A stretch of 9,660 nucleotides of DNA, taken from a virus. Its lineage: Duplodnaviria; Heunggongvirae; Uroviricota; Caudoviricetes. Each line of letters begins with the position of its first letter. Position 1 is the first letter of the stretch. Position numbers and translations under genes: made by a program. The notes below the pieces were generated by a model, which worked only from the letters and a program-made list of their open reading frames with translations, was not told the DNA's origin and ran no database searches. Where the stretch lies: the IMG/VR virus record IMGVR_UViG_2706794688_000013; one strand, given 5' to 3'. Shown piece by piece: positions 1 through 9,660 of this stretch.

Positions 1-90
1 GAACAGGAGGGACAGCTGATAGAAACAGAAGCCACTGGAGCACCTCAAAAACACCATCATACACTAAATCAGTAAGTTGGCAGCATCACC
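1..90 (-). mobile_element. IS1 left end (terminal inverted repeat plus the first codons of insA), truncated by the window edge
   Basis: The reverse complement of 1..90 reads GGTGATGCTGCCAACTTACTGATTTAGTGTATGATGGTG...GCTTCTGTTTCTATCAGCTGTCCCTCCTGTTC, which I recognise from memory as the IS1 left terminus running into insA (MASVSISCPSCS...). The element boundary is at position 90; unrelated sequence starts at 91. Confidence 0.85.
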
Positions 91-242
91 CCGCCACAGA
101 ACAATTATTGCTTTTGCCGTTGATGACAATAAAGTTTTTATCGCAGGCGTATACCACGGTGGGCAAATCTATGAAACCGATTTTTTATCCAGTGCACCGT
201 AAAACCCCCATCCTTCAGGGCGTGGCGGATATCAAACTTTGG

Positions 243-1325
243 TCATTTTCTCTGGCTGATCTTTACCGGATAACCATCCCGAAGATCAATTAAGTGCTCC
301 GGTTCAGAAGCAAACCATGCATAAGATCCCCACGCCAATTCTGGTATTGCCTTTTTAAAAGGCAGAGCACTTCTGTCCATAAATGCCGTAAGGAATGCAA
401 GATTTTTCTCGCTGAACCCAGCGTCAATAGCCAAATGAGTGAGAGTAACTTTTCGTTCCCTGTTTATAGGCCCATCTGTCGCAACTACTTCAGTGAAAAC
501 TACAAGCATGTCCGAACCCGTTCGGTCCTCTCCCAAATCAATCAAAATAATATCTGGAAGTGCTTTTGAGGCATCAATATTCAGCCCCAATGCTTTTGCC
601 AATACATCATCCTGAGCAACAACTTTATTCCCGGATTCAGACAACCAGAGCACAGTTGGATTCTTAAGAAAATTAGGAGCAAAAACTTCGATGACGGCCT
701 TAGCTATTGTACTTGACGGGCCCGGAGCTAAAGTTCTCTTCTCTCCATTTGGGAAAGTGACGACTACGGCATCAGCAGCAATCACTGCCCCTGATTTCAA
801 TAAACGCAACCTAGCAAGAGCGGCTTTGTTCAAATGATTTTCTTGCCAGGAACTTATTGCACTCAGCAGCGAATCTCCTTCAAGCCCGGCATCAAAGAGT
901 GCTGCAAAAGAGCGATTCAAACTGTAACGAGGACGAGAGGATGTGGTGGGTATACCTTTACGCTCAACAATTGCATTGCAAGGTATTAGGCCATTTTTTA
1001 TAGTTTCATCACGTATTGGCTCACGCGTATTTTCCGCATACCATGCATCAGCAGGCCTTATCTTTTGTTTAGAGAAAGTCATCTTTACCCAGCTTTCTCT
1101 GGACGCATCATCAGTAAGAGCAGCCTGCGAATCTCCCATACTTACAACCTGGCTGGGCCTTATCCATCGCCCCAGCCCCTCAACCGCACCAGCATAAAAC
1201 ATGACAAAAATTGTTTTTGCAGCTATTTCCCGAATTAAATATCCACGATTCTCAGTCCCTTCAGGGAAAATTAATTGTAATCTTTCCCGGATAACATTCA
1301 ATGGGGGAACAACAGGCAGATTCAT
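243..1325 (-). CDS. Putative Type II restriction endonuclease (BsuBI/PstI-like, tentative)
   Basis: 360-aa ORF whose ATG (1325..1323) overlaps the TGA of the upstream methyltransferase in an ATGA arrangement, indicating translational coupling. Stop TGA at 245..243. The family assignment rests on operon context and my recollection of BsuBI/PstI-family sequences; no catalytic motif was verified. Confidence 0.55.
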   Translation of the reverse strand: MNLPVVPPLNVIRERLQLIFPEGTENRGYLIREIAAKTIFVMFYAGAVEGLGRWIRPSQVVSMGDSQAALTDDASRESWVKMTFSKQKIRPADAWYAENTREPIRDETIKNGLIPCNAIVERKGIPTTSSRPRYSLNRSFAALFDAGLEGDSLLSAISSWQENHLNKAALARLRLLKSGAVIAADAVVVTFPNGEKRTLAPGPSSTIAKAVIEVFAPNFLKNPTVLWLSESGNKVVAQDDVLAKALGLNIDASKALPDIILIDLGEDRTGSDMLVVFTEVVATDGPINRERKVTLTHLAIDAGFSEKNLAFLTAFMDRSALPFKKAIPELAWGSYAWFASEPEHLIDLRDGYPVKISQRK

Positions 1326-3154
1326 GCAATCATCACTCCATAGAAACCAGCGATAGTTCTCTCAATAATCCGTCTGTGGACGCCAGCATCAATTAACGAT
1401 TGAATCTCCATCACCTGCTCCAGAGAAGGCAACGGGATTGAATTCAATTCATAGGCCGAAACAGCAACACTTCCGCTTATACACCTGAACGCCCGATCGA
1501 CAACATGCGAATTAAGTAGCATATCAATAACATCAGGGCGAACCGCAGAGAACAATCCGTTTGAATATACAATATTAATATGGTTTTCAACTACTACGCC
1601 ACCAGTTTCATCTATAAATCCCTGAGGTAAAATTGCCGCTAAAATCCTTCTGTCCTGTTCCTTCGATGTTGTCCGCTGAACAAGCACACATTCAGATTTT
1701 GTCACAAGGAAACCCTGTTGTGGGGTTATATCGATATAGGGAACATGATTTTTTCTGTCTGCACTAAAACGAAAACCAGCTGAAGTTATTGATTCCGCCC
1801 AGACTAATGGGTAGCTATTTTTTCCTTTCGTCGTACGCAACTGCGACTTAAATCGATTCCAGACTAACTGACCTGTAGAGACTGAGTATCCCAGATCAGC
1901 TAAACGCGTAGACATCTGTTTTAATACATTAAGAAAACAGGCATCATCTTTAACGCGTGGCAAAAGCCACGTTGCTCCACCTTTTTCTATATCAACATTA
2001 CCTATTTTCTCAATTTTTGCTTTGTTCAACCCCTTAGGGACAAGTGAGGATACCTGGGCCCGAACTTTATGTTCTCCCGCCTTGAATGCTGTCAACATTG
2101 TTTCCTGGAGAACATCGTCAAAGACCCCATCCCTGTCAGTGACGAAATCAAGGGCATACGGAGTAGTTTTTTCGGTCAAAAGGGTTCGCAGCGCGGTGAA
2201 ATACTGCCCACCAAGAAAAGAAGTTGGCGTAAGAAATGCAATAACTCCTGTTTTCTCTTTAACCATGCGAACAGCTAAGTCGGTGAACAATCCATATAGA
2301 TTTGCATGACCAAATAACGAACGAGAATATTTTTCTCTCGTTTTAATATCGAGAGTGACACGTCCGTAAGGCGGATTCCCTACCACAAGATCATAACCAG
2401 AAAATTTATCTTGCTGAAGCGCATCAGCAACAATAATTGTATCTTCAGGCAATCTACGTTTTACCTTTACACATAGTGGCATTAGTACAGATTCGAGCAA
2501 TACCAAACTCATCCAAGCCGCAAATGGATCGATCTCTATCCCCTTTAAACGACGACTGATTCTCCTCAACATCCATTCAGGGGAAGACCCCTTGTCTTTT
2601 TTTAACATTCGAATGGCTACTGGTGCCAAAAATGCACCGCCACCACACGCAGGATCAATAACCGATGCATGAGAAAAATCAACACCAGACTTTTCAGCCA
2701 GGTCCAAGAGACGCGCTACCAAAGGTGGGGGGGTATAGTAAGCCCCCAATTCCGAACGGTAAGCGGATGGCAGCATTACCGTATAAATTGACCCAATCAG
2801 ATATCCAGCGTCCTCCGCCGGAAATTGAGCAATAAGCTCACCTGTTCGTTCAGCGAGCTCGCGTGCATCACATGGAATGTCTTCTATGTAAACAGTGTGC
2901 GGTACTGCCCTCATTTTAATGCTGCTTTTTTGCTTTTTTGCAAGGGTATCCCAATATGCAGCTACGATGCTGAAGCAGTATGAGCGGGCATGCATCAACC
3001 TTGACTGCCCGGTTTTGTAATTGCCCGCATAACCTTTGGCCATGGCTTTACAAGTTTGATATCTTTCCAGATTAGAAAACTCATTATCTGTAAAAAAATC
3101 AAAATGTTGCACATTCATAATGTAAAATCCTAATGTATCAAACATGCGGGCCAT
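1322..3154 (-). CDS. N6-adenine DNA methyltransferase (gamma-class amino-methyltransferase)
   Basis: 610-aa ORF with motif order X (ELGAYYTPPPLV), I (VIDPACGGGAFLAP, the AdoMet-binding loop) and IV (VVGNPPYGRV, the NPPY catalytic motif), followed by a long C-terminal region consistent with a target-recognition domain. The start could be 3154, 3145 or 3118; the ATG at 3118 has the best Shine-Dalgarno (TAGGAT). Confidence 0.85.
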   Translation of the reverse strand: MARMFDTLGFYIMNVQHFDFFTDNEFSNLERYQTCKAMAKGYAGNYKTGQSRLMHARSYCFSIVAAYWDTLAKKQKSSIKMRAVPHTVYIEDIPCDARELAERTGELIAQFPAEDAGYLIGSIYTVMLPSAYRSELGAYYTPPPLVARLLDLAEKSGVDFSHASVIDPACGGGAFLAPVAIRMLKKDKGSSPEWMLRRISRRLKGIEIDPFAAWMSLVLLESVLMPLCVKVKRRLPEDTIIVADALQQDKFSGYDLVVGNPPYGRVTLDIKTREKYSRSLFGHANLYGLFTDLAVRMVKEKTGVIAFLTPTSFLGGQYFTALRTLLTEKTTPYALDFVTDRDGVFDDVLQETMLTAFKAGEHKVRAQVSSLVPKGLNKAKIEKIGNVDIEKGGATWLLPRVKDDACFLNVLKQMSTRLADLGYSVSTGQLVWNRFKSQLRTTKGKNSYPLVWAESITSAGFRFSADRKNHVPYIDITPQQGFLVTKSECVLVQRTTSKEQDRRILAAILPQGFIDETGGVVVENHINIVYSNGLFSAVRPDVIDMLLNSHVVDRAFRCISGSVAVSAYELNSIPLPSLEQVMEIQSLIDAGVHRRIIERTIAGFYGVMIA

Positions 3155-3368
3155 AACATCTCATGGTGGCGCATAGCAAACTGGCCCGAAGAATATCACG
3201 CACCAAGTCGATCTCATAACCCGTTATGACAATAAATCTTTGTAGCTGAACTCACTTGGTGATTTGTCAATCATTCCTGGCCTCCAGTTCGTCCTGAATC
3301 TCTTTATCGAGTTCACCGTATTTGTTAGTCCTCATCACTCACGACTTGACTTCCAGAAATAACCTTGA

Positions 3369-3725
3369 TTATTCGGGGCTATATTTTGTCACCCTGCGTA
3401 TCCGCGCTTTCGCATTACGCTCAATCTGGATTAGCTTTTCTATATTTTTTCGCCTTTCCCGCTCCTCCTGGCGCAAGAGCCTTACATCATCTGCCAGTCT
3501 GGTTTCTCTTTTCGCCACAGAGAGCATCCAGTCAAATGGCTCCACAACTGCACCGCAAATTTTACAGCGGACCTGACGCTCTTTTTCGTCAACCCGGACA
3601 GAAGCGTGATGGCAATATGGTCTTTCCGATGGCTCATAAAGAAAATTAACCTGATTACGAGGGTTATCCTCTTTTACCGGAAATAAAACAATATTGCTTA
3701 ACTCATCTTCTGGTTTTATTTCCAT
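3369..3725 (-). CDS. Hypothetical phage protein with a Cys/His cluster (zinc-ribbon-like) and a charged C-terminal helix
   Basis: The ORF track starts at a GTG at 3782. The ATG at 3725 is preferred because it is preceded by AAAGGAGAGGAGC. Contains YCHH...x16...CKIC followed by an Arg/Glu-rich segment. Function unknown. Confidence 0.5.
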   Translation of the reverse strand: MEIKPEDELSNIVLFPVKEDNPRNQVNFLYEPSERPYCHHASVRVDEKERQVRCKICGAVVEPFDWMLSVAKRETRLADDVRLLRQEERERRKNIEKLIQIERNAKARIRRVTKYSPE

Positions 3726-3782
3726 GCTCCTCTCCTTTGATGCGAATGCCAGCGGTAATTGAAGCCTGATAGCTAATTTCAC

Positions 3783-4205
3783 TCACAGTACCGCCTCCTG
3801 AAAATCACCCTGATAGAAAGCCGGTACACGCTGCATAACTTCACTCTTCCGGCACTCGCGACAGATTATGTTCTGATGTCTGTCGTAGCGGCGTATTTCT
3901 CCGTCCGGTAATGACCAGATAAGGTCCGGATCAACCACAGATGGTTTCTTCAGCTTTGCCCTCGAGAGTTTTTTGCGGGCGTTTTGCCAGTCCTTACGAG
4001 CCTGTTCAGACGGGAATAACCCGTAGCCAGAGTTGTATACATCCCCACTGGCAACCAGCTCTCTGGCGAGAACGCTTATTAAATATCTTGTCGCCCCGGT
4101 TTTAGCTTCCAGTTGTCGTAACGTCTCGCGCCCACTCTGGCGTACGAGTTCAACAACCTGCCCCTTAATTTTTTCCCGCTCTTCCTGTGTAAATACTTTT
4201 GCCAT
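3783..4205 (-). CDS. Hypothetical phage protein
   Basis: The ORF track starts at a TTG at 4220. The ATG at 4205 is preferred (upstream CGGGGGCGCTT; 15-nt gap after the stop of the upstream gene). Has a C-terminal CRECRK motif. Same strand and tightly packed with its neighbours. Confidence 0.5.
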   Translation of the reverse strand: MAKVFTQEEREKIKGQVVELVRQSGRETLRQLEAKTGATRYLISVLARELVASGDVYNSGYGLFPSEQARKDWQNARKKLSRAKLKKPSVVDPDLIWSLPDGEIRRYDRHQNIICRECRKSEVMQRVPAFYQGDFQEAVL

Positions 4206-4220
4206 AAGCGCCCCCGGCAA

Positions 4221-4946
4221 TCACTTTTCCGACACAATACGACCGGAGGAATCGACAATCTGTCGAACAATATCCCGGTGCTTGTTCAGCTCCCGCAACG
4301 CGGCGCAGACACGCTCCCACTTCTGGACATGACTTTTCGCCCGACGCAGTTCGCGGTTTGCCATATGCAGCGATGGTAAAACCAGGTCATCCGCTTGCGT
4401 TTCGGTGAACGATGGCAACGACTGCACAATGTCCGCCACAGTTTCTGTTTTAATTTCTTCCTGTGTTGCAGCTTCCTGTACCGGTAACGCAACACCTGCT
4501 GGCTGAGGAAAGACTTTACCATCCGTTTCCGCTATGGATGCGGCTTTCGGCTCTGCCGGTAAATCAGCGCCCGGTATGCAGTACCGAAATTTACCGCCCT
4601 GATTCACGCGAATCAGACGCCCTTTGCTGATTGCCATGGCCAGCGATGAATTCGCCCGGCGGGAGGTAATCCCGAACATCAGTGCCAGCTCATCCGCCGT
4701 TTGTGGGCCATGTTGTTCAATCGCCTCAGTCAGCATTTGCGCTGTCACTTTCGGTACCGGTGACACTGGTTCACTTTCACCAGCCTGAATCAGCCACCAC
4801 ATCGAACCCTTGTTATCCGCTTCACCACGGCGCTTCAGTTTCCACAGTTCGTTGACCGCATCTTCACGGCTGATTCCAAGGCGGGACGCCACCACATGTG
4901 AAGAGGCTCTTTTCAGTGCTTTCAGTGCGTCAAATACAGTTTCCAT
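4221..4946 (-). CDS. Hypothetical phage protein with two winged-helix-like segments
   Basis: ATG at 4946 is preceded by GGAGGA with a 7-nt spacer; the ORF track's TTG start at 4964 is less likely. Two similar segments ([25 protein letters not shown] and [27 protein letters not shown]) suggest a tandem HTH or winged-helix fold. Lies immediately downstream of the DnaC-like gene (stop 4968..4970). Confidence 0.55.
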
Positions 4947-4967
4947 TAAAACATCCTCCAACAAAAA

Positions 4968-5479
4968 TTACTTCACAACTCCCGGAAAGCTGACATTTGA
5001 ACGCCAGCTATCCCAGTTAAACGTCACCCACCGACAACCGTTCATGGTCATGCGGTCCATAATCCTCTCACCAAGAAGCGTGCTCATTGCGGCATGATTC
5101 AGGTTTGTTAACATCCCGACACTGCACAGTGATGCTGTCCGGCGATCAATTATCTGGTGCAATACCACCTGCTCGTTTTTCGTCTCCCGCTGAATGCCTA
5201 TTTCATCCAGGACCAGCAAATCAACCCCGCAAAGCTCCTGTAAAAATTTTTCACCGGATTTGCCGTTGTCGTAGCTGTCATGCAACACGCTCATGACATC
5301 AGACTCGGTGACGATAATCACGCTGCGCCCCTTCGCCATCAGCCGGTTACCCATCGCCGCTGCAAGGTGATTTTTCCCGGTGCCGGTTTTACCGCTGAAC
5401 ACAAAATTCGTGCACCCGGTCATCAGTTCGTCAGCTATGGATTTGGCCTGGCTCAGCGCGTATTTTTGCCCGTCGTTCT
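4968..5479 (-). CDS. DnaC-like helicase loader (AAA+ ATPase); 5' end lost in the N gap
   Basis: Walker A FSGKTGTGKNHLAAA and Walker B LLVLDEIG motifs in the expected order and spacing for DnaC/IstB-type loaders. Only the C-terminal part is visible; the N-terminal part lies within or beyond the N run. Confidence 0.85.
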
Positions 5480-5732
5480 NNNNNNNNNNNNNNNNNNNNN
5501 NNNNNNNNNNNNNNNNNNNNNNNNNNNNNNNNNNNNNNNNNNNNNNNNNNNNNNNNNNNNNNNNNNNNNNNNNNNNNNNNNNNNNNNNNNNNNNNNNNNN
5601 NNNNNNNNNNNNNNNNNNNNNNNNNNNNNNNNNNNNNNNNNNNNNNNNNNNNNNNNNNNNNNNNNNNNNNNNNNNNNNNNNNNNNNNNNNNNNNNNNNNN
5701 NNNNNNNNNNNNNNNNNNNNNNNNNNNNNNNN
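5480..5732. other. Assembly gap (253 N)
   Basis: Uninterrupted run of n. The X-containing ORFs reported across it are reading artefacts. Confidence 0.99.
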
Positions 5733-6742
5733 CAACGCTGGTTGTTCGTGCCGCTTACCGGGAGCAACCAGGGGTTTTCAAAATTCCGGTCCGGCCCAAA
5801 AAACGTCGTCGCTCGCTGAACAAATTCCGTTCCCGCTTTCCCGGTCGCCGCCAGGTATCTCGCGTAACGCCTCACACCATCCAGCATGGTCTCTGGTGGC
5901 ACCCCCTCGCGCAATCTGGCCTTCCAGGCACTGAATGCGGATTTCTTCGGGTTTGCCCCGGCACGCAACGGGTATTCCCGCCAGACCTGTTCGAACACAT
6001 CCGGATAATCCACTCGTCCCACAGGCTGCCCGGTGTTTTCCGGGGCTACCCGATCGGCTTCCCGCTGAATGGCGGAATCGGCTTCAGGCTGCTGCAGTTG
6101 GAGTGATTGCTCCGGCCTTGCGGTCATCACCTGCTGCACAGCGCCCGAATCGGCTTTCAGCGCATACGCTGAATCGGCTTCCGGTGTCGAGCCTGCTGGC
6201 TGACCAGGATTGACGGTCTGAACATCCCCTGCCTGGTTCGTGGCGTTTTTTACGCCATGGACCATAGTGTTTTGATCTTCTTTATCTGTATCTTTATCTG
6301 TATCTGTCGTGACTCGTCGTGACATGTGCGTGACATTTCGTGACGCGCCGTGACAATCGCCATTTTGTTCCCGCTTTCTTTCCCTCTCTCGCTGCGCCCT
6401 CTTGCGCTCTGCAGGAGATTTTGCGGTTTGCGAAATATTGCCGTTGTCCTCTTTAAGCACCTGGCGTTTTTCCCATCCAGTGATTAAATCACCATCAAGT
6501 ACCCGCCCCTGCATCGTCTGCAAAATTGAATCAATTACCTCTTCTGTCACGTCGAGCGCACTTGCCAAATCTTCTGTCGTGACATCAATGTGACCTCGCG
6601 TGACATTTCGTGACGCGCTCACCAGGAGGTGGATATACACTGCCATCACTGTTGCAATTGGCTGCCCTGACACCCTGGCAATTGTTCGCCACTTAGGGTC
6701 ATTTGGCATGTCATGCCATAATCTGAGCCAGGCGTTAGCCAT
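5733..6742 (-). CDS. Phage replication initiator / replisome organiser (lambda O-like); 3' end lost in the N gap
   Basis: ATG at 6742 is preceded by GAGGTGA. The C-terminal visible part has the W..YP.....K..A...W motif (VWREYPLRAGANPKKSAFSAWKARL) that I associate with phage replication proteins. The gene contains the iteron arrays. Gene order (Cro-like, YdaT-like, this gene, DnaC-like) matches Rac-type early-right operons. Confidence 0.7.
6280..6303. repeat. Perfect 12-bp tandem duplication (CTTTATCTGTAT x2) in an AT-rich stretch
   Basis: Read directly: 6280..6291 equals 6292..6303. It lies inside the O-like gene, where it encodes a TDKDTDKED repeat, immediately next to iteron cluster 1. Confidence 0.8.
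6308..6354. repeat. Iteron cluster 1: five CGTGAC hexamers phased at 10-11 bp
   Basis: CGTGAC at 6308, 6318, 6329, 6339 and 6349, about one per helical turn. Confidence 0.65.
6578..6614. repeat. Iteron cluster 2: four (C/T)GTGAC hexamers phased at 10-11 bp
   Basis: Hexamers at 6578, 6589, 6599 and 6609, plus an inverted copy GTCACG at 6546..6551. A 21-bp stretch (6598..6618) is identical to 6328..6348 in cluster 1. Confidence 0.65.
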
Positions 6743-6813
6743 ACTCACCTCTTCTGATACCGAATCTTTTTACTCACGAGTTGCCGGGAGCGATTCGATA
6801 TGGCTATTGTCAG

Positions 6814-7239
6814 TCAATGTACTGCCACAGCATTTCCTGCCGGGCCACCACGGTTCATCTGATTGAAACCGGCGATTGCCACTGCGACAAAATCATCAGC
6901 GTCTCTCACCAGTCGTTCATGCGTCTCCACCAGTTCCCGAAAATAAGCTGAACTGTGGCTGCGCATTCGAGCCACCAGCGGAGGTGGCATTGCCCTTTCG
7001 ATCGCAGGTAACAACGCCTGAATTTTTTCAACAGCGTCAGGGGTGTCTTTATCCAGCCAACGGAAAATCTTTTGGGTGTTGAGATAAAGCGTGTTGTGCT
7101 TGCTGTCGTTATGCAGAACCGGAAACGTCATTCCCAGTTCGAAATAAACCCTGGTTATTTCAGCTGCCGGAACTTTTTCACCGTCCGGATGCGCCCAGGC
7201 TTTCATCGCCATGCGGATGTGTTCATGCTTGATTTTCAT
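6814..7239 (-). CDS. YdaT-like protein (Rac-prophage family; proposed CII-like regulator)
   Basis: 141 aa beginning MKIKHEHI, which I recall as the N-terminus of E. coli Rac YdaT. Its ATG (7239..7237) overlaps the TGA of the upstream Cro-like gene (ATGA), and GGGGG lies upstream. Confidence 0.65.
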   Translation of the reverse strand: MKIKHEHIRMAMKAWAHPDGEKVPAAEITRVYFELGMTFPVLHNDSKHNTLYLNTQKIFRWLDKDTPDAVEKIQALLPAIERAMPPPLVARMRSHSSAYFRELVETHERLVRDADDFVAVAIAGFNQMNRGGPAGNAVAVH

Positions 7240-7499
7240 GAATCAACCCCCGCCGATGGTTGTGTGTTAGCCTGAAACTCAGCAGGCAAGCCGTCAGTTG
7301 GGTTGGGGTAGGTTTTACTGTCAATCTCATGTGGGGTCACCACCCATCCCGTTGCTTCACACCAACGTAATATTTTTTCTCCTGTAAGTTTTGCACGCCC
7401 CGTTATAACGTGGCTGACCATCCCTTGGGATGCGCCAACAATCTCAGCAAATGAACTCTGGGTTATATGAAAATGATGCAAATATTCTCCAAGATTCAT
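7236..7499 (-). CDS. Cro/YdaS-like HTH regulator
   Basis: ATG at 7499 is preferred over the ORF track's TTG at 7526. HTH-like segment QSSFAEIVGASQGMVSHVITGRAKLTGEKI. Transcribed divergently from the repressor gene and first in the replication operon. Confidence 0.6.
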   Translation of the reverse strand: MNLGEYLHHFHITQSSFAEIVGASQGMVSHVITGRAKLTGEKILRWCEATGWVVTPHEIDSKTYPNPTDGLPAEFQANTQPSAGVDS

Positions 7500-7535
7500 A
7501 ATCCGCCCTATGTGATGTGTTACCAATGCATAATT

Positions 7536-7575
7536 AATAGCACTGTTATTTTTAAAAGTAAATAGTGATACTATT
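7536..7575. promoter_or_regulatory. Two operator-like 15-bp palindromes in the divergent promoter region
   Basis: 7536..7550 AATAGCactGTTATT and 7561..7575 AATAGTgatACTATT, 25 bp centre to centre. On the minus strand a TTTACT-17-TATTAA promoter-like pair (plus coordinates 7557..7562 and 7534..7539) overlaps them, so repressor binding would occlude the Cro-like promoter. Confidence 0.45.
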
Positions 7576-7610
7576 TCAAAGTGATTAGCAATCTTATTAG
7601 AATTGGATGT

Positions 7611-8111
7611 ATGAAAAGAAAATCATTGTCAGACACCGACCTCAACGCCGCCAGAAGACTGAAAGAAATCTGGATGGCAAAGAAATCTCAGTTGGGATTG
7701 ACTCAGGAACGTGCGGCGGAAATTATGGGGTTTTCAACACAAGGGGCGGTAAGTCACTACCTAAATGGTCAAACCCCACTAAACCTTGAGGCTGTTCTAA
7801 AGTTTGCTGGCTTACTGAAAGTTCCCCCTGAGTCAATCAGGCCAGACATGGTAGATTTGCTGCAAATTGCAAGGATGTATTGTCGAGAACCACAGCAAGA
7901 TAACATAGTCGCATTACCAGCAGACACAGAACAAACAGAGGATGAACTACCGTTTGCCGTAGAGCCGATGGAACGAGATTTAATCCATACGTTCAGAGCT
8001 TTTCCGAAAGAAGATCAAGAACACATGCTTCAGGAGATGAAAGATAAAAAAGAATCAATGGATCGTACGGTTGCGCGGTGGTTAGCTGCACAAAAAGGCC
8101 GTCGCGCCTAA
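7611..8111 (+). CDS. HTH (XRE-family) repressor; candidate immunity repressor and/or PaaR-like regulator of the downstream toxin-antitoxin pair
   Basis: ATG at 7611 is preferred over the ORF track's start at 7581. N-terminal HTH (LTQERAAEIMGFSTQGAVSHYLNG). No Ser-Lys peptidase (LexA/S24-like) C-terminal domain is recognisable. Divergent from the Cro-like gene. Confidence 0.7.
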   Translation: MKRKSLSDTDLNAARRLKEIWMAKKSQLGLTQERAAEIMGFSTQGAVSHYLNGQTPLNLEAVLKFAGLLKVPPESIRPDMVDLLQIARMYCREPQQDNIVALPADTEQTEDELPFAVEPMERDLIHTFRAFPKEDQEHMLQEMKDKKESMDRTVARWLAAQKGRRA

Positions 8112-8130
8112 ATCAGAGGAGATATGTAAA

Positions 8131-8325
8131 ATGAGTACAGTCCTTTCCCCAATGGTTTCAGAATTTGAGACAGTTGAGCAAGAAAATAGTTACAACGAAT
8201 GGCTGCGGGCCAAAGTAGCAGCAAGCCTCGCGGATCCCCGCCCGGCGATTCCGCATGATGAGGTAATGGCGGAAATGGAACAAATTATTGCCCAAATTGC
8301 TGCTGCAACTCACAGAGGTGAATAA
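8131..8325 (+). CDS. Small antitoxin (PaaA/ParD-like)
   Basis: 64-aa acidic protein directly upstream of a ParE-like toxin, with a 1-nt stop/start overlap (TAATG). Shine-Dalgarno GAGGA lies 10 nt upstream. Confidence 0.65.
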   Translation: MSTVLSPMVSEFETVEQENSYNEWLRAKVAASLADPRPAIPHDEVMAEMEQIIAQIAAATHRGE

Positions 8326-8615
8326 TGTTACCCGTTTTATGGCTACCATCTGCTCGTGATGATTTGCGCCAGATCGTAGCCTACATAGCTAAAGAAAATC
8401 CCGCGGCAGCACGCAGAATGAAAATTCGAATTGAAACATCCGTTTTGCCGCTCACAGAGCATCCTTACCTGTATCCTCCAAGCGAGCGAGTTCTTGGTCT
8501 TCGTGAAATTGTAACTCATCCTAACTACATCATCCTTTACCGAGTAACAGCATCAAGCATAGAAGTAGTAAATATTGTGCATTCTCGAAGACAGTATCCA
8601 GGCAAAAACAGTTAA
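8325..8615 (+). CDS. ParE/RelE-superfamily toxin
   Basis: 96 aa with the ParE-like pattern: N-terminal W..SARDDLRQIVAYI, then PYLYP...GLREIVTHPNYIILYRV, then VVNIVHSRRQYP at the C-terminus. Coupled to the antitoxin. Confidence 0.75.
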   Translation: MLPVLWLPSARDDLRQIVAYIAKENPAAARRMKIRIETSVLPLTEHPYLYPPSERVLGLREIVTHPNYIILYRVTASSIEVVNIVHSRRQYPGKNS

Positions 8616-8631
8616 TTATTCCCGCCGACAG

Positions 8632-8656
8632 AACCACCTTAGGGTGGTTTTTTCTT
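8632..8656 (+). terminator. Rho-independent terminator after the toxin gene
   Basis: Stem AACCACC (8632..8638), loop TTAG, stem GGTGGTT (8643..8649), running into TTTTTTCTT. Confidence 0.6.
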
Positions 8657-8671
8657 GCCCCAACAAAAAAC

Positions 8672-8714
8672 AATAGCGATGCTATTTACATCAAAAAAAA
8701 ATAATGATGCTATT
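8672..8714. promoter_or_regulatory. Second pair of operator-like palindromes (same consensus as 7536..7575)
   Basis: 8672..8686 AATAGCgatGCTATT (perfect 6-3-6 inverted repeat) and 8700..8714 AATAATgatGCTATT, 28 bp centre to centre. TTTACA at 8685..8690 could serve as a -35 for a rightward promoter. Confidence 0.4.
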
Positions 8715-8895
8715 GTTTCAGGCGTCAACCCACCCCGCCCCACAGAATGCAGGGCAATACTTCGAGTTACCAGACAGTGGTCAGGGGTTAAGTAGCCAGC
8801 CCGAGGCGTAAGAACATGACGGCAGGGTTCAATCTTTAACTATGCAGCAGGTTTTTTGTTCCGCCACCCCGGCGTTAAGGGGAAATGAGGTCAGC

Positions 8896-9048
8896 ATGGA
8901 TACTATCGATCTTGGCAACAACGAATCTCTGGTGTGCGGCGTGTTCCCTAACCAGGATGGAACGTTTACCGCCATGACGTATACCAAAAGCAAAACGTTT
9001 AAAACCGAATCTGGCGCGCGTTGCTGGTTAGCCAGAAACACTGACTGA
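8896..9048 (+). CDS. Small hypothetical prophage protein (50 aa)
   Basis: ATG at 8896 with GAGG 5 nt upstream; the ORF track's upstream extension has no ribosome-binding site. The sequence MDTIDLGNNESLV... resembles small proteins I associate with Rac-type prophages (YdaF-like), but that is from memory only. Confidence 0.5.
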   Translation: MDTIDLGNNESLVCGVFPNQDGTFTAMTYTKSKTFKTESGARCWLARNTD

Positions 9049-9059
9049 TGAGGCTGACG

Positions 9060-9425
9060 ATGGAATTTAAAGATTTACCGTCTGATGTACAGAAAACAGC
9101 AGCTCATACATTGCATTCTGTGCTGCGAGAAATCGGGAAAGATATTGCAAGCGAGCCAGCAAAAGATCTGGCCCGGAAAATCAAGACCGCTTTCGTTGAG
9201 CTTTATAATGTTGGCACTGACTCTGAAACTGTCGAGACCAAGACCGTAAGTTCACCAATATTCTCACTTGAGCCAAGCGTATTATCAGGTGAAATATGCA
9301 CCGAGATTTCCAGCGAACTGCTTCCGGTAATACGAGAAGCAATTCGCCGTCGCGGTTTGGATGGAAGTTATGATCATGACGTTCTGCAAGTTCTCAGGAC
9401 AATGGTGACTTCACTGGGGATTTGA
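9060..9425 (+). CDS. Hypothetical protein (about 121 aa)
   Basis: ATG at 9060 is preceded by GAGG with a 6-nt spacer; it follows the upstream gene's stop (9046..9048) by 11 nt. No recognisable motif. Confidence 0.5.
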   Translation: MEFKDLPSDVQKTAAHTLHSVLREIGKDIASEPAKDLARKIKTAFVELYNVGTDSETVETKTVSSPIFSLEPSVLSGEICTEISSELLPVIREAIRRRGLDGSYDHDVLQVLRTMVTSLGI

Positions 9426-9557
9426 TCCCTGCGTCCTCTAAGCTTTTGATATAGCGGTCCTCCAAGAAGCGGTAAATTTTGTCGAAATCATCTTTTCCCT
9501 CTGGTTTATTCAGAGGATTACAGGACCCGTAAGTAGCGGCATACATTTCAACCGTTT

Positions 9558-9660
9558 GGTAATGACTCCAACTTATTGATAGTGTTTTATGTTCAGATAA
9601 TGCCCGATGACTTTGTCATGCAGCTCCACCGATTTTGAGAACGACAGCGACTTCCGTCCC
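9558..9660 (-). mobile_element. IS1 right end (terminal inverted repeat plus the 3' end of insB), truncated by the window edge
   Basis: 9558 onward reads GGTAATGACTCCAACTTATTGATAGTGTTTTATGTTCAGATAATGCCCGATGACTTTGTCATGCAGCTCCACCGATTTTGAGAACGACAGCGACTTCCGTCCC, the complement of the IS1 right terminus and insB C-terminus (…SFSKSVELHDKVIGHYLNIKHYQ*) as I recall it. The insB stop corresponds to plus-strand 9574..9576. Confidence 0.85.

Follow-up and report, generated by a model that had tools for sequence, protein, structure and literature searches.

A Two-Gene Type II Restriction-Modification Cassette of the BsuBI/PstI/SdaI Endonuclease Family in a Lambdoid Prophage of Shigella sonnei

Introduction

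Pairs of a BsuBI/PstI-family restriction endonuclease (R) and an adenine methyltransferase (M) have been described as cargo of mobile elements. The EcoGIII-type system, which is carried by Stx2a-converting lambdoid prophages of Escherichia coli O104:H4, O145:H28 and O103, was demonstrated to be specific for CTGCAG and to be active in lysogens (PMC3893438). It comprises an M of 489 aa and an R of 317 aa, and its genes follow cI directly, on the repressor side of the immunity region. In SGI1-related islands, A025/A026 of AGI1 form a two-gene cargo of a BsuBI/PstI endonuclease and an N-6 methylase (PMC9035990). As regards the species considered here, a PADLOC survey counted 982 Type II systems in 994 Shigella sonnei genomes and found the restriction-modification (R-M) content of the species to be highly uniform (PMC13293514).

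We analyzed a stretch of 9,660 nucleotides of prophage DNA (IMG/VR record IMGVR_UViG_2706794688_000013), hereafter the window. An earlier sequence-only reading had proposed that positions 243-3154 hold an R-M operon carried as prophage cargo. Our analysis indicates that this locus is very probably a complete two-gene Type II R-M system of the BsuBI/PstI/SdaI endonuclease family, which forms a cargo of ~3.1 kb in a lambdoid prophage of S. sonnei. The pair is an ordinary Type II system and has been annotated already, both proteins being classified by RefSeq and PADLOC; a search of the open literature for an enzymatic or methylome characterization of the S. sonnei system found nothing.

Gene Organization and the M-R Junction

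The genes and their parts are as follows, all on the minus strand:

1322..3154: N6-adenine DNA methyltransferase gene M, longest open reading frame (ORF) 610 aa
2774..3109: extra four-helix bundle at the N terminus of M, residues 16-127
2366..2740: catalytic core motifs of M, by residue position
2726-2740: motif X of M, YYTPP, from residue 139
2636-2656: motif I of M, DPACGGG, from residue 167
2366-2377: motif IV of M, NPPY, from residue 260
1322..1325: ATGA overlap of the M stop and the R start
243..1325: restriction endonuclease gene R, 360 aa, BsuBI/PstI/SdaI family
1002..1043: helix motif W95-T108 of R (WYAENTREPIRDET), conserved in homologues and in pairwise alignments, candidate DNA-recognition helix
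489..626: putative catalytic codons of R (K234 at 624-626, P257-D258 at 552-557, E279 at 489-491)

The ORF list returned both genes exactly where the sequence-only reading had placed them, and direct reading of the junction bore out the overlapping layout in which M precedes R. The minus strand runs ...GGAGTGATGATTGCATGAATC at this point, with the M stop codon TGA (1324-1322) overlapping the R start codon ATG (1325-1323), and GGAG is found at 1336-1339, 10 nt upstream of the R ATG; the overlap together with the upstream GGAG fits translational coupling. The arrangement is widespread: M and R overlap by 4 nt in 47 of 71 homologous loci and by 1 nt in a further 12 (59/71 together), and among 80 loci of beta-, gamma- and alpha-proteobacterial or other origin, 78 have an M homologue directly upstream of R. 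Separate, adjacent M and R genes that are inherited together are a hallmark of an orthodox two-gene Type II system; a further one is an endonuclease that cleaves at a fixed position within or close to a short site unless its partner has methylated that site. A fused Type IIG or YenI-like enzyme was ruled out by the stop codon separating the two ORFs. The PADLOC model PDLC03359 (840 positions) is matched by M over model positions 28-257, in its N-terminal part, and by R over positions 595-831, in its C-terminal part, which shows that fused relatives exist.

Control by a C protein was ruled out as well, there being neither a controller gene nor an inverted-repeat operator. On the coding strand of the cassette, the ORF list contains no ORF of at least 50 aa besides M and R, hence no C gene, and a search of the 214-bp leader upstream of M found no inverted repeat. 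Without a C gene, a delay of R upon entry into a new host would be left to translational coupling.

The Endonuclease

A Pfam search of the kind that the sequence-only reading had suggested recovered both domains of the BsuBI/PstI family in R and an Eco57I-type domain in M. In R, the family's N-terminal domain (PF17728; 1.2e-30, 106.6 bits, residues 10-172) is followed by its nuclease domain (PF06616; 9.3e-45, 152.2 bits, residues 188-349), both above the Pfam gathering score of 27. The protein thus consists of an N-terminal domain of the winged helix-turn-helix (wHTH) type (residues ~10-172) and a C-terminal PD-(D/E)XK-type nuclease domain (~188-349). R also matched the PADLOC REase_II model PDLC03589 at residues 3-351 (2.8e-128). 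Among solved structures, only that of SdaI (CCTGCAGG; PDB 2IXS), an enzyme with an 8-bp recognition site, matches R by sequence (1.8e-16, residues 96-349); as in SdaI, Pfam assigns to R an HTH-type N domain and a nuclease C domain, but the two are distant, and SdaI has 323 aa against 360 in R. The sequence-only reading had conceded that a 360-aa protein unlike any endonuclease family, and not toxic when expressed without M, would leave a solitary methyltransferase; that outcome is countered by the Pfam, PADLOC and SdaI matches, because these make R a BsuBI/PstI-family protein.

Residues K234, P257, D258, E279, G285 and P286, which make up the nuclease core pattern PD...E.V..GP with an upstream Lys, are all present, are invariant or nearly so and align with SdaI and the Stx2a-phage enzyme. 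Among these, K234, P257-D258 and E279 are invariant among 23 diverse homologues and align with the GxxxxK, PD and E of SdaI and of the Stx2a-phage CTGCAG enzyme; by this conservation they are putative catalytic residues. The Lys of a canonical (D/E)XK motif is missing right after E279, where R reads E-V-V-A and the EcoGIII type E-S-V-T, against E-A-V-K in SdaI; SdaI has Lys at E+3 and E+5, positions that in the R subfamily hold A/H and D. Given this lack of the canonical Lys in the family, K234 can be named as the catalytic Lys only as a guess. In the N-terminal domain, W95, Y96, A97, R101, E102, R105, D106 and T108 are invariant in the 23 homologues, and the W95-T108 motif is common to SdaI (YATGSREDFRKKT) and the EcoGIII-type enzyme (YAPNTRETFRRQS). 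By comparison with the SdaI structure, this motif is a candidate for the DNA-recognition helix.

The Methyltransferase

M is a gamma-class N6-adenine methyltransferase of the Eco57I/N6_Mtase type, with the motif order X-I-IV followed by a C-terminal target-recognition domain. The three motifs had been named by the sequence-only reading and were found again, invariant in 37 homologues. M exceeded the Pfam cut-off for both Eco57I (PF07669; 1.7e-13, 51.4 bits) and N6_Mtase (PF02384; 2.1e-09, 37.6 bits), matched the PADLOC MTase_II model PDLC03338 end to end (1.8e-300) and was matched in NCBIfam also. Its AF2 model (pLDDT 87, pTM 0.85; residues 1-15 below 50) was used in a Foldseek search, in which the best structural matches were the monomeric gamma-class enzymes CamA, M.BseCI and M.TaqI (E 1e-19 to 1e-17, probability 1.00); like M, these have a Rossmann catalytic domain with NPPY and then a C-terminal target-recognition domain. 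The true start of M is probably the ATG at 3118 (M13), giving a protein of 598 aa, as it is preceded by AGGA 9 nt before and most homologues have 598 aa.

The larger size of M relative to the PstI/BsuBI methyltransferases, and the extra N-terminal domain postulated from it, were both corroborated: the Stx2a-phage M has 489 aa, and a PADLOC methyltransferase model of 494 positions covers M residues 131-602 only. The extra part measures ~110 aa, not the 150 aa first supposed, and forms a conserved four-helix bundle that is missing in the 489-507-aa PstI/BsuBI-type methyltransferases. This helical domain is real and conserved in a large known subfamily, rather than peculiar to this gene. The subfamily with a 598-aa M and a 360-aa R is widespread in Enterobacteriaceae, Burkholderiaceae and Alphaproteobacteria, and a 609-aa methyltransferase of Vibrio mimicus is 60% identical to M.

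Cassette Limits, Leader and Prophage Context

The surroundings of the two genes contain the following features:

1..90: terminal 90 bp of an IS1 copy
92..202, plus strand: 3' remnant of a ParE-family toxin gene, last 36 codons and stop
203..3364 (approximate), minus strand: inserted R-M cassette (leader, M and R), from alignments to prophages without the cassette and from the ParE end
3155..3225, minus strand: conserved upstream leader, from a three-way alignment
3198-3190, minus strand: candidate extended -10 element TGATATTCT

The IS1 end matches the IS1 copies of phage P1, of SfIV and of thousands of E. coli records at 100% identity and stops at the inverted repeat (...GGCAGCATCACC) at position 90. 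The remnant beside it, translated as RHRTIIAFAVDDNKVFIAGVYHGGQIYETDFLSSAP and a stop, is identical to residues 68-103 of an intact ParE that adjoins ParD in E. coli FDAARGOS_943. The IS1 end was thus recognized correctly from the letters, but it is not the direct neighbor of the block: between R and IS1 lies parE, which was cut by the IS1 insertion and converges on R. A second ParE-type toxin-antitoxin module, PaaA2/ParE, is located beside the repressor in the same prophage.

The left limit of the cassette was set by the ParE homology, which ends at or before 202, and the right limit by alignments to cassette-less E. coli prophages, which begin at query positions 252-266 (window 3351-3365). 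The slot so defined in the lambdoid prophage has the replication genes on one side and DUF968/RusA/Q on the other. Among 5426 complete E. coli genomes, the cassette was present in only 2, each time in a lambdoid prophage and flanked by DUF977/hypothetical and ParDE-DUF968-RusA-Q, and prophages of Citrobacter sedlakii and Kluyvera huaxiensis carry it in the same slot at 86-89% identity. Related E. coli prophages without the cassette have hokD or ParDE in the slot, in agreement with the earlier view that this is a position of variable cargo in lambdoid phages. M and R correspond to the protein records WP_000113425.1 and WP_001053102.1; their exact sequences were found on at least 1000 contigs each, mostly of S. 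sonnei, and the records of the R contigs are named BsuBI/PstI family type II restriction endonuclease.

In a three-way alignment with the C. sedlakii and K. huaxiensis prophages, the sequence from ~3225 to the M ATG is nearly invariant, so that three different phage backgrounds share, along with the cassette, ~70-100 bp of conserved sequence upstream of M; 3' of the R stop, no conservation was found between phage backgrounds. A leader that moves with the cassette from one phage background to another suggests that the cassette has its own promoter, and a candidate extended -10 element was found by hand in the conserved part. A consensus scan of the 214-bp leader called no sigma-70 promoter, and the same kind of scan found no terminator after R. 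The block lies downstream of the replication genes, as had been proposed, but it may not be part of their operon, the leader suggesting a separate promoter.

The R-M block has a GC content of 43.6% (GC3 0.36-0.37), against 51.5% in the replication block at 3369-7499, where GC3 is ~0.51-0.53 for DUF977, DUF1627 and YdaT. The block is more AT-rich, as had been claimed, but by ~8 points and not 20; the 63% GC ascribed to the replication genes corresponds to a local peak at ~5800-6200 (61.5% in a 400-nt window). The prophage region at 7500-9660 has 44.9% GC and is AT-rich like the R-M block. Presence or absence between syntenic phage genes, together with an atypical composition, is as expected of a moron, an independently expressed cargo block of a prophage; a moron would further have its own promoter and terminator, and here the leader is conserved but the consensus scan called neither.

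Comparison with Known Systems and the Recognition Site

The cassette resembles the EcoGIII type in that M is followed by R with a 4-nt overlap as cargo of a lambdoid prophage in E. coli/Shigella, and in the Pfam family of the endonuclease and the class of the methyltransferase. The two also have in common the YAxNTRExxR motif in the region of the recognition helix, the PD...E.V..GP nuclease core and motifs in the target-recognition domain of M. In contrast, the proteins are only 26-27% (R) and 25% (M) identical, the EcoGIII-type M is devoid of the N-terminal helical domain, and the present cassette occupies a nin-like slot downstream of the replication genes. Orthology with EcoGIII was ruled out by these identities, the other size of M and the other prophage slot. 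At the level of protein families, AGI1 A025/A026 are likewise a pair of genes that mobile elements of Gammaproteobacteria carry as cargo, but their carrier is an integrative mobilizable island and not a prophage.

By analogy, our leading guess for the recognition site is CTGCAG or a close relative, since EcoGIII and the other characterized members of the BsuBI/PstI/SdaI family have a CTGCAG core; the conserved YAxNTRExxR helix motif of R also speaks for this core. The low identity of R to the Stx2a-phage CTGCAG enzyme and its distance from SdaI imply that the specificity may have changed. Palindrome avoidance was evaluated across 1.34 Mb in 81 loci that surround homologous cassettes, with no cassette-free control set. 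CTGCAG was not notably avoided around the homologous cassettes (observed/expected, O/E, 0.89). The most depleted hexamer was CTCGAG, with an O/E of 0.42 and counts below expectation in 71 of 74 loci, again with no cassette-free control, and GGATCC and GAGCTC were depleted nearly as consistently in the same loci. Derivation of the site from palindrome avoidance was set aside in view of the similar behavior of GGATCC and GAGCTC, the missing control set and the small size of the enteric prophage loci.

Proposed Function and Alternative Explanations

In the reading that we prefer, M would act as a monomeric gamma-class enzyme (598-610 aa) that flips out adenine and N6-methylates a short site on both strands, in host and prophage DNA alike. 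R would bind the same site via its N-terminal winged-helix domain and cut it with the C-terminal PD-(D/E)XK-type domain if unmethylated, so that incoming phage or plasmid DNA would be destroyed; as a side effect, cells losing the prophage would be penalized. Translation of R would be coupled to the end of M by the ATGA overlap, and without M there would thus be no R. Expression in the lysogen would most likely start from a promoter in the conserved leader of 70-100 bp, and read-through from the early-right operon would add to it upon induction.

Type II systems generally act in both addiction and defense, and the pair might be kept chiefly as an addiction (post-segregational killing) module that stabilizes a decaying prophage, with anti-phage defense secondary. 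After loss of the cassette, M would be diluted faster than R activity, and unmethylated chromosomal sites would be cut. This explanation agrees with the IS1-cut ParDE adjoining R, with PaaA2/ParE beside the repressor, with hokD or ParDE occupying the slot in related prophages, and with the near-universal, sequence-identical presence of the cassette in S. sonnei despite IS1 erosion of the element. However, addiction is compatible with defense and does not exclude it, and near-universality in S. sonnei could reflect mere clonal descent; we hold a chiefly addictive role to be possible but rather doubtful. A different proposal concerns expression: the cassette may lack its own promoter and stay silent in the lysogen, being expressed only after induction, at the distal end of the early-right (replication) operon, to methylate progeny phage DNA and/or degrade host DNA. 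In each of the four phage backgrounds, the cassette indeed follows the replication genes directly and in the same orientation, and the scan revealed no consensus promoter or intervening terminator. Yet the leader accompanies the cassette even where the genes upstream are unrelated, homologous M-R pairs function in many settings outside phages, and the M and R genes are intact in S. sonnei although the prophage is disrupted by IS elements; moreover, if R were first made in a cell whose chromosome and phage genome carry no methylation, it would cut the DNA of the phage itself. Expression by the operon alone is accordingly judged improbable.

That R is inactive or otherwise employed, which would in effect leave a lone methyltransferase beside an unrelated or decayed gene, could be argued from the absence of the canonical (D/E)XK Lys at its usual position. 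The biochemically active EcoGIII-type enzyme has the same non-canonical motif (PMC3893438), every family-invariant residue is present in R, and S. sonnei and E. coli FDAARGOS_943 have the same full-length R ORF, at 100% identity. Hundreds of full-length homologues, 63-89% identical to R, also neighbor M, and we consider an inactive R highly improbable.

Significance

Nearly all S. sonnei genomes appear to have this cassette as their single Type II R-M system. The recognition site of the cassette, once identified, would be useful for the transformation of clinical S. sonnei, for the choice or engineering of therapeutic phages and for the reading of methylomes, although the practical value is modest. 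The cassette leaves the current understanding of R-M systems and prophage cargo unchallenged; it illustrates cleanly how an R-M cassette moves between lambdoid prophages of Shigella/E. coli, Citrobacter and Kluyvera at one and the same cargo slot, beside toxin-antitoxin modules.

A further, rather unlikely proposal by analogy is that the subfamily of 598-aa M and 360-aa R has diverged from CTGCAG to another site, with the N-terminal four-helix domain as a timing regulator, and forms a species-wide barrier. If true, an uncharacterized barrier would shape the entry of phages and plasmids into S. sonnei throughout the species, because essentially every S. sonnei carries the cassette. The regulatory role envisaged for the four-helix domain is that of a C protein or of an N-terminal HTH, such as the regulatory N-terminal HTH of M.SsoII.

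Identity of the restriction-modification system

The restriction-modification finding is real, and the sequence-only reading of it was right apart from minor corrections. The block contains two genes:

1322..3154, minus strand: N6-adenine methyltransferase M, 610 aa in its longest reading
243..1325, minus strand: endonuclease R, 360 aa

R had been proposed to be a BsuBI/PstI endonuclease, and a domain search returned PF17728 (1.2e-30) and PF06616 (9.3e-45), both far over their gathering scores. R also matched the 364-position PADLOC Type II REase model over its whole length (2.8e-128) and the sequence of the SdaI crystal structure (1.8e-16). Across 23 aligned homologues, with identities as low as 52%, residues K234, P257-D258, E279, and G285-P286 were invariant or nearly so, and they have aligned counterparts in SdaI and in the Stx2a-phage CTGCAG enzyme (EcoGIII type). 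Directly after E279, the R subfamily lacks the canonical Lys of (D/E)XK, as does the EcoGIII-type enzyme; because the latter is reported to be biochemically active (PMC3893438), the missing Lys is not a mark of decay.

M carries YYTPP at residue 139, DPACGGG at 167, and NPPY at 260, the gamma-class order, as had been noted for motifs X, I, and IV. The expected Eco57I-type domain was obtained (Pfam Eco57I and N6_Mtase), together with the 604-position PADLOC Type II MTase model (1.8e-300). A confident AlphaFold2 model built with 37 homologues as input (pLDDT 87, pTM 0.85) retrieved CamA, M.BseCI, and M.TaqI in Foldseek (E 1e-19 to 1e-17). Most homologues are 598 aa long, pLDDT falls below 50 over residues 1-15 of the 610-aa reading, and AGGA lies 9 nt 5' of ATG 3118; the true product is therefore probably 598 aa, starting at ATG 3118. 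The suspected extra N-terminal domain was borne out: a 494-position PADLOC model covers only residues 131-602, the Stx2a-phage CTGCAG methyltransferase has 489 aa, and residues 16-127 form a four-helix bundle (pLDDT 86-97) with residues conserved across the subfamily. We read this bundle as an HsdM-like N-terminal helical domain; no support was found for an HTH regulator fold in it.

Gene pairing and composition

The ORF list and the junction sequence (minus strand, TATGGAGTGATGATTGCATGAATCTG) confirmed the overlap of the two ORFs: ATGA (1325-1322) is common to the M stop TGA and the R start ATG, and GGAG lies 10 nt 5' of the latter. Among 80 loci encoding R relatives (one genome per species), an M homologue was directly upstream on the same strand in 78. 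The 71 resolvable junctions comprised 4-nt overlaps (47), 1-nt overlaps (12), gaps of 0-8 nt (9), and three others (two longer overlaps, of 11 and 56 nt, and a single gap of 2307 nt). Hosts include Enterobacterales, Burkholderiales, Pseudomonadales, many Alphaproteobacteria, and a few other phyla. Judged from these comparisons, M-R is a two-gene unit that has been widely transferred and is selected as such.

The block was correctly described as lower in GC (43.6%, with GC3 0.36-0.37) than 3369-7499 (51.5%, with GC3 ~0.51-0.53 in the DUF977, DUF1627, and YdaT genes), but the 63% quoted for the replication genes is a local peak near 5800-6200. The low GC is compatible with foreign origin, though not peculiar to the block, since the immunity-side part (7500-9660) is also at 44.9%.

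Prophage slot and neighbors

Exact M and exact R each occur on at least 1000 contigs, most named Shigella sonnei, which identifies the window as S. sonnei DNA; among complete E. coli genomes, the cassette is present in only 2 of 5426. The copy in E. coli FDAARGOS_943 is part of a lambdoid prophage integrated beside potC, in the order Cro-like, YdaT, replisome organizer, ATPase, DUF977, hypothetical, M, and R, followed by a convergent ParD-ParE pair, DUF968, RusA, Q, tRNAs, and lysis genes. Placement between the last phage-like gene and an IS1 end held for the IS1, although a cut parE intervenes:

1-90: IS1 end, inserted in a second ParE toxin gene, the counterpart of the parE in the FDAARGOS_943 pair
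92-202: ParE remnant, last 36 codons, exact match to FDAARGOS_943 ParE

ParD and the first 67 ParE codons must be lost or beyond IS1; ParD loss before the ParE cut would have been lethal, which makes the sequence in which these events took place of some interest.

Prophages with related flanks lack the cassette, with homology restarting at 3351-3365; their slot holds hokD plus small ORFs, or ParDE. In other lambdoid prophages, from Citrobacter sedlakii and Kluyvera huaxiensis, this slot is taken up by cassettes that are 86-89% identical. Since contents vary and cassettes recur there, the suggested variable-cargo position is supported. In C. sedlakii (locus L085, 9451-10560), the genes after the cassette encode a phage RecA-like protein (369 aa) and a protein with a LexA DNA-binding domain; in Kluyvera, a DinI homologue comes next. 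These phages thus group SOS-related cargo beside the cassette.

Just upstream of the cassette, ORF 3369-3782 (minus strand; 137 aa in the longest reading, 118 aa in RefSeq) is ~94% identical at the DNA level among hundreds of lambdoid prophages of E. coli, where it adjoins DUF977; it gave zero NCBIfam matches and, in Pfam, only a TFIIB zinc-ribbon under cut-off (2.2e-4). A run of 253 N (5480-5732) masks the junction of the O-like replisome-organizer ORF (5453-6748) and the IstB/DnaC-like ATPase ORF (4968-5735), and the ends of both are unreliable because they cross it.

Expression

Upstream of M, the sequence from ~3225 to the start codon is nearly invariant in three backgrounds and unrelated farther upstream; nothing after the R stop is conserved among them. 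This leader moves with the cassette, and a promoter for the latter probably lies within it. By eye, we found an extended -10-like TGATATTCT at 3198-3190; a consensus scan called neither promoter nor terminator. The cassette has no C-protein gene, and no inverted repeat resembling an operator was found. Membership of the replication operon is plausible but unproven, and the cassette may also be read through from the early-right operon.

Known systems and possible recognition site

The families are well known, the system is already annotated under them by RefSeq and PADLOC, and prophage-borne relatives are published. The precedent is the EcoGIII-type system of Stx2a prophages, in which 98.8% of CTGCAG sites are methylated in the lysogen (PMC3893438). 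At 26% (R) and 25% (M) identity, the cassette belongs to a different lineage; the EcoGIII-type proteins have 489 aa (M) and 317 aa (R), and their genes lie directly downstream of cI, whereas the S. sonnei cassette is downstream of replication genes. SGI1-type islands, too, are known to carry pairs of a BsuBI/PstI enzyme and an N-6 methylase (PMC9035990). Among 994 S. sonnei genomes, a PADLOC survey counted 982 Type II systems and remarked on the uniform restriction-modification content of the species (PMC13293514); these figures fit the cassette being the standard Type II system of S. sonnei, although the survey does not mention it by name.

For the recognition sequence, a literature search found no methylome or enzymology of the S. 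sonnei system. The helix motif YAxNTRExxR is common to R, SdaI, and the EcoGIII type. The known sites of characterized family members (PstI, BsuBI, YenI, and EcoGIII, and SdaI, SbfI, and Sse8387I with CCTGCAGG) have a CTGCAG core in common. EcoGIII specificity is CTGCAG (PMC3893438). CTGCAG or a relative is our leading guess, at roughly even odds. An analysis of palindrome avoidance gave neither confirmation of this guess nor another site in its place. Across the 80 loci (L002-L081), all around homologous cassettes, the palindromic hexamer with the strongest depletion was CTCGAG, at O/E 0.42 and under expectation in 71 of 74 loci, followed by GGATCC, GGGCCC, and GAGCTC; as a cassette-free control is absent, this depletion cannot be linked to the family.

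Immunity-region toxin-antitoxin genes

7581-8615, plus strand: three co-oriented immunity-region genes

These encode a 176-aa HTH repressor (HTH_3) with a weakly DicA-like C-terminus, a 64-aa PaaA2/RelB-type antitoxin (PF21217, 3e-23), and a 96-aa ParE toxin (PF05016, 1.8e-17) starting at the antitoxin stop. The group looks like a PaaR2-PaaA2-ParE2-type three-component module, and it lies beside the repressor in the slot that holds the CTGCAG system in Stx2a phages.
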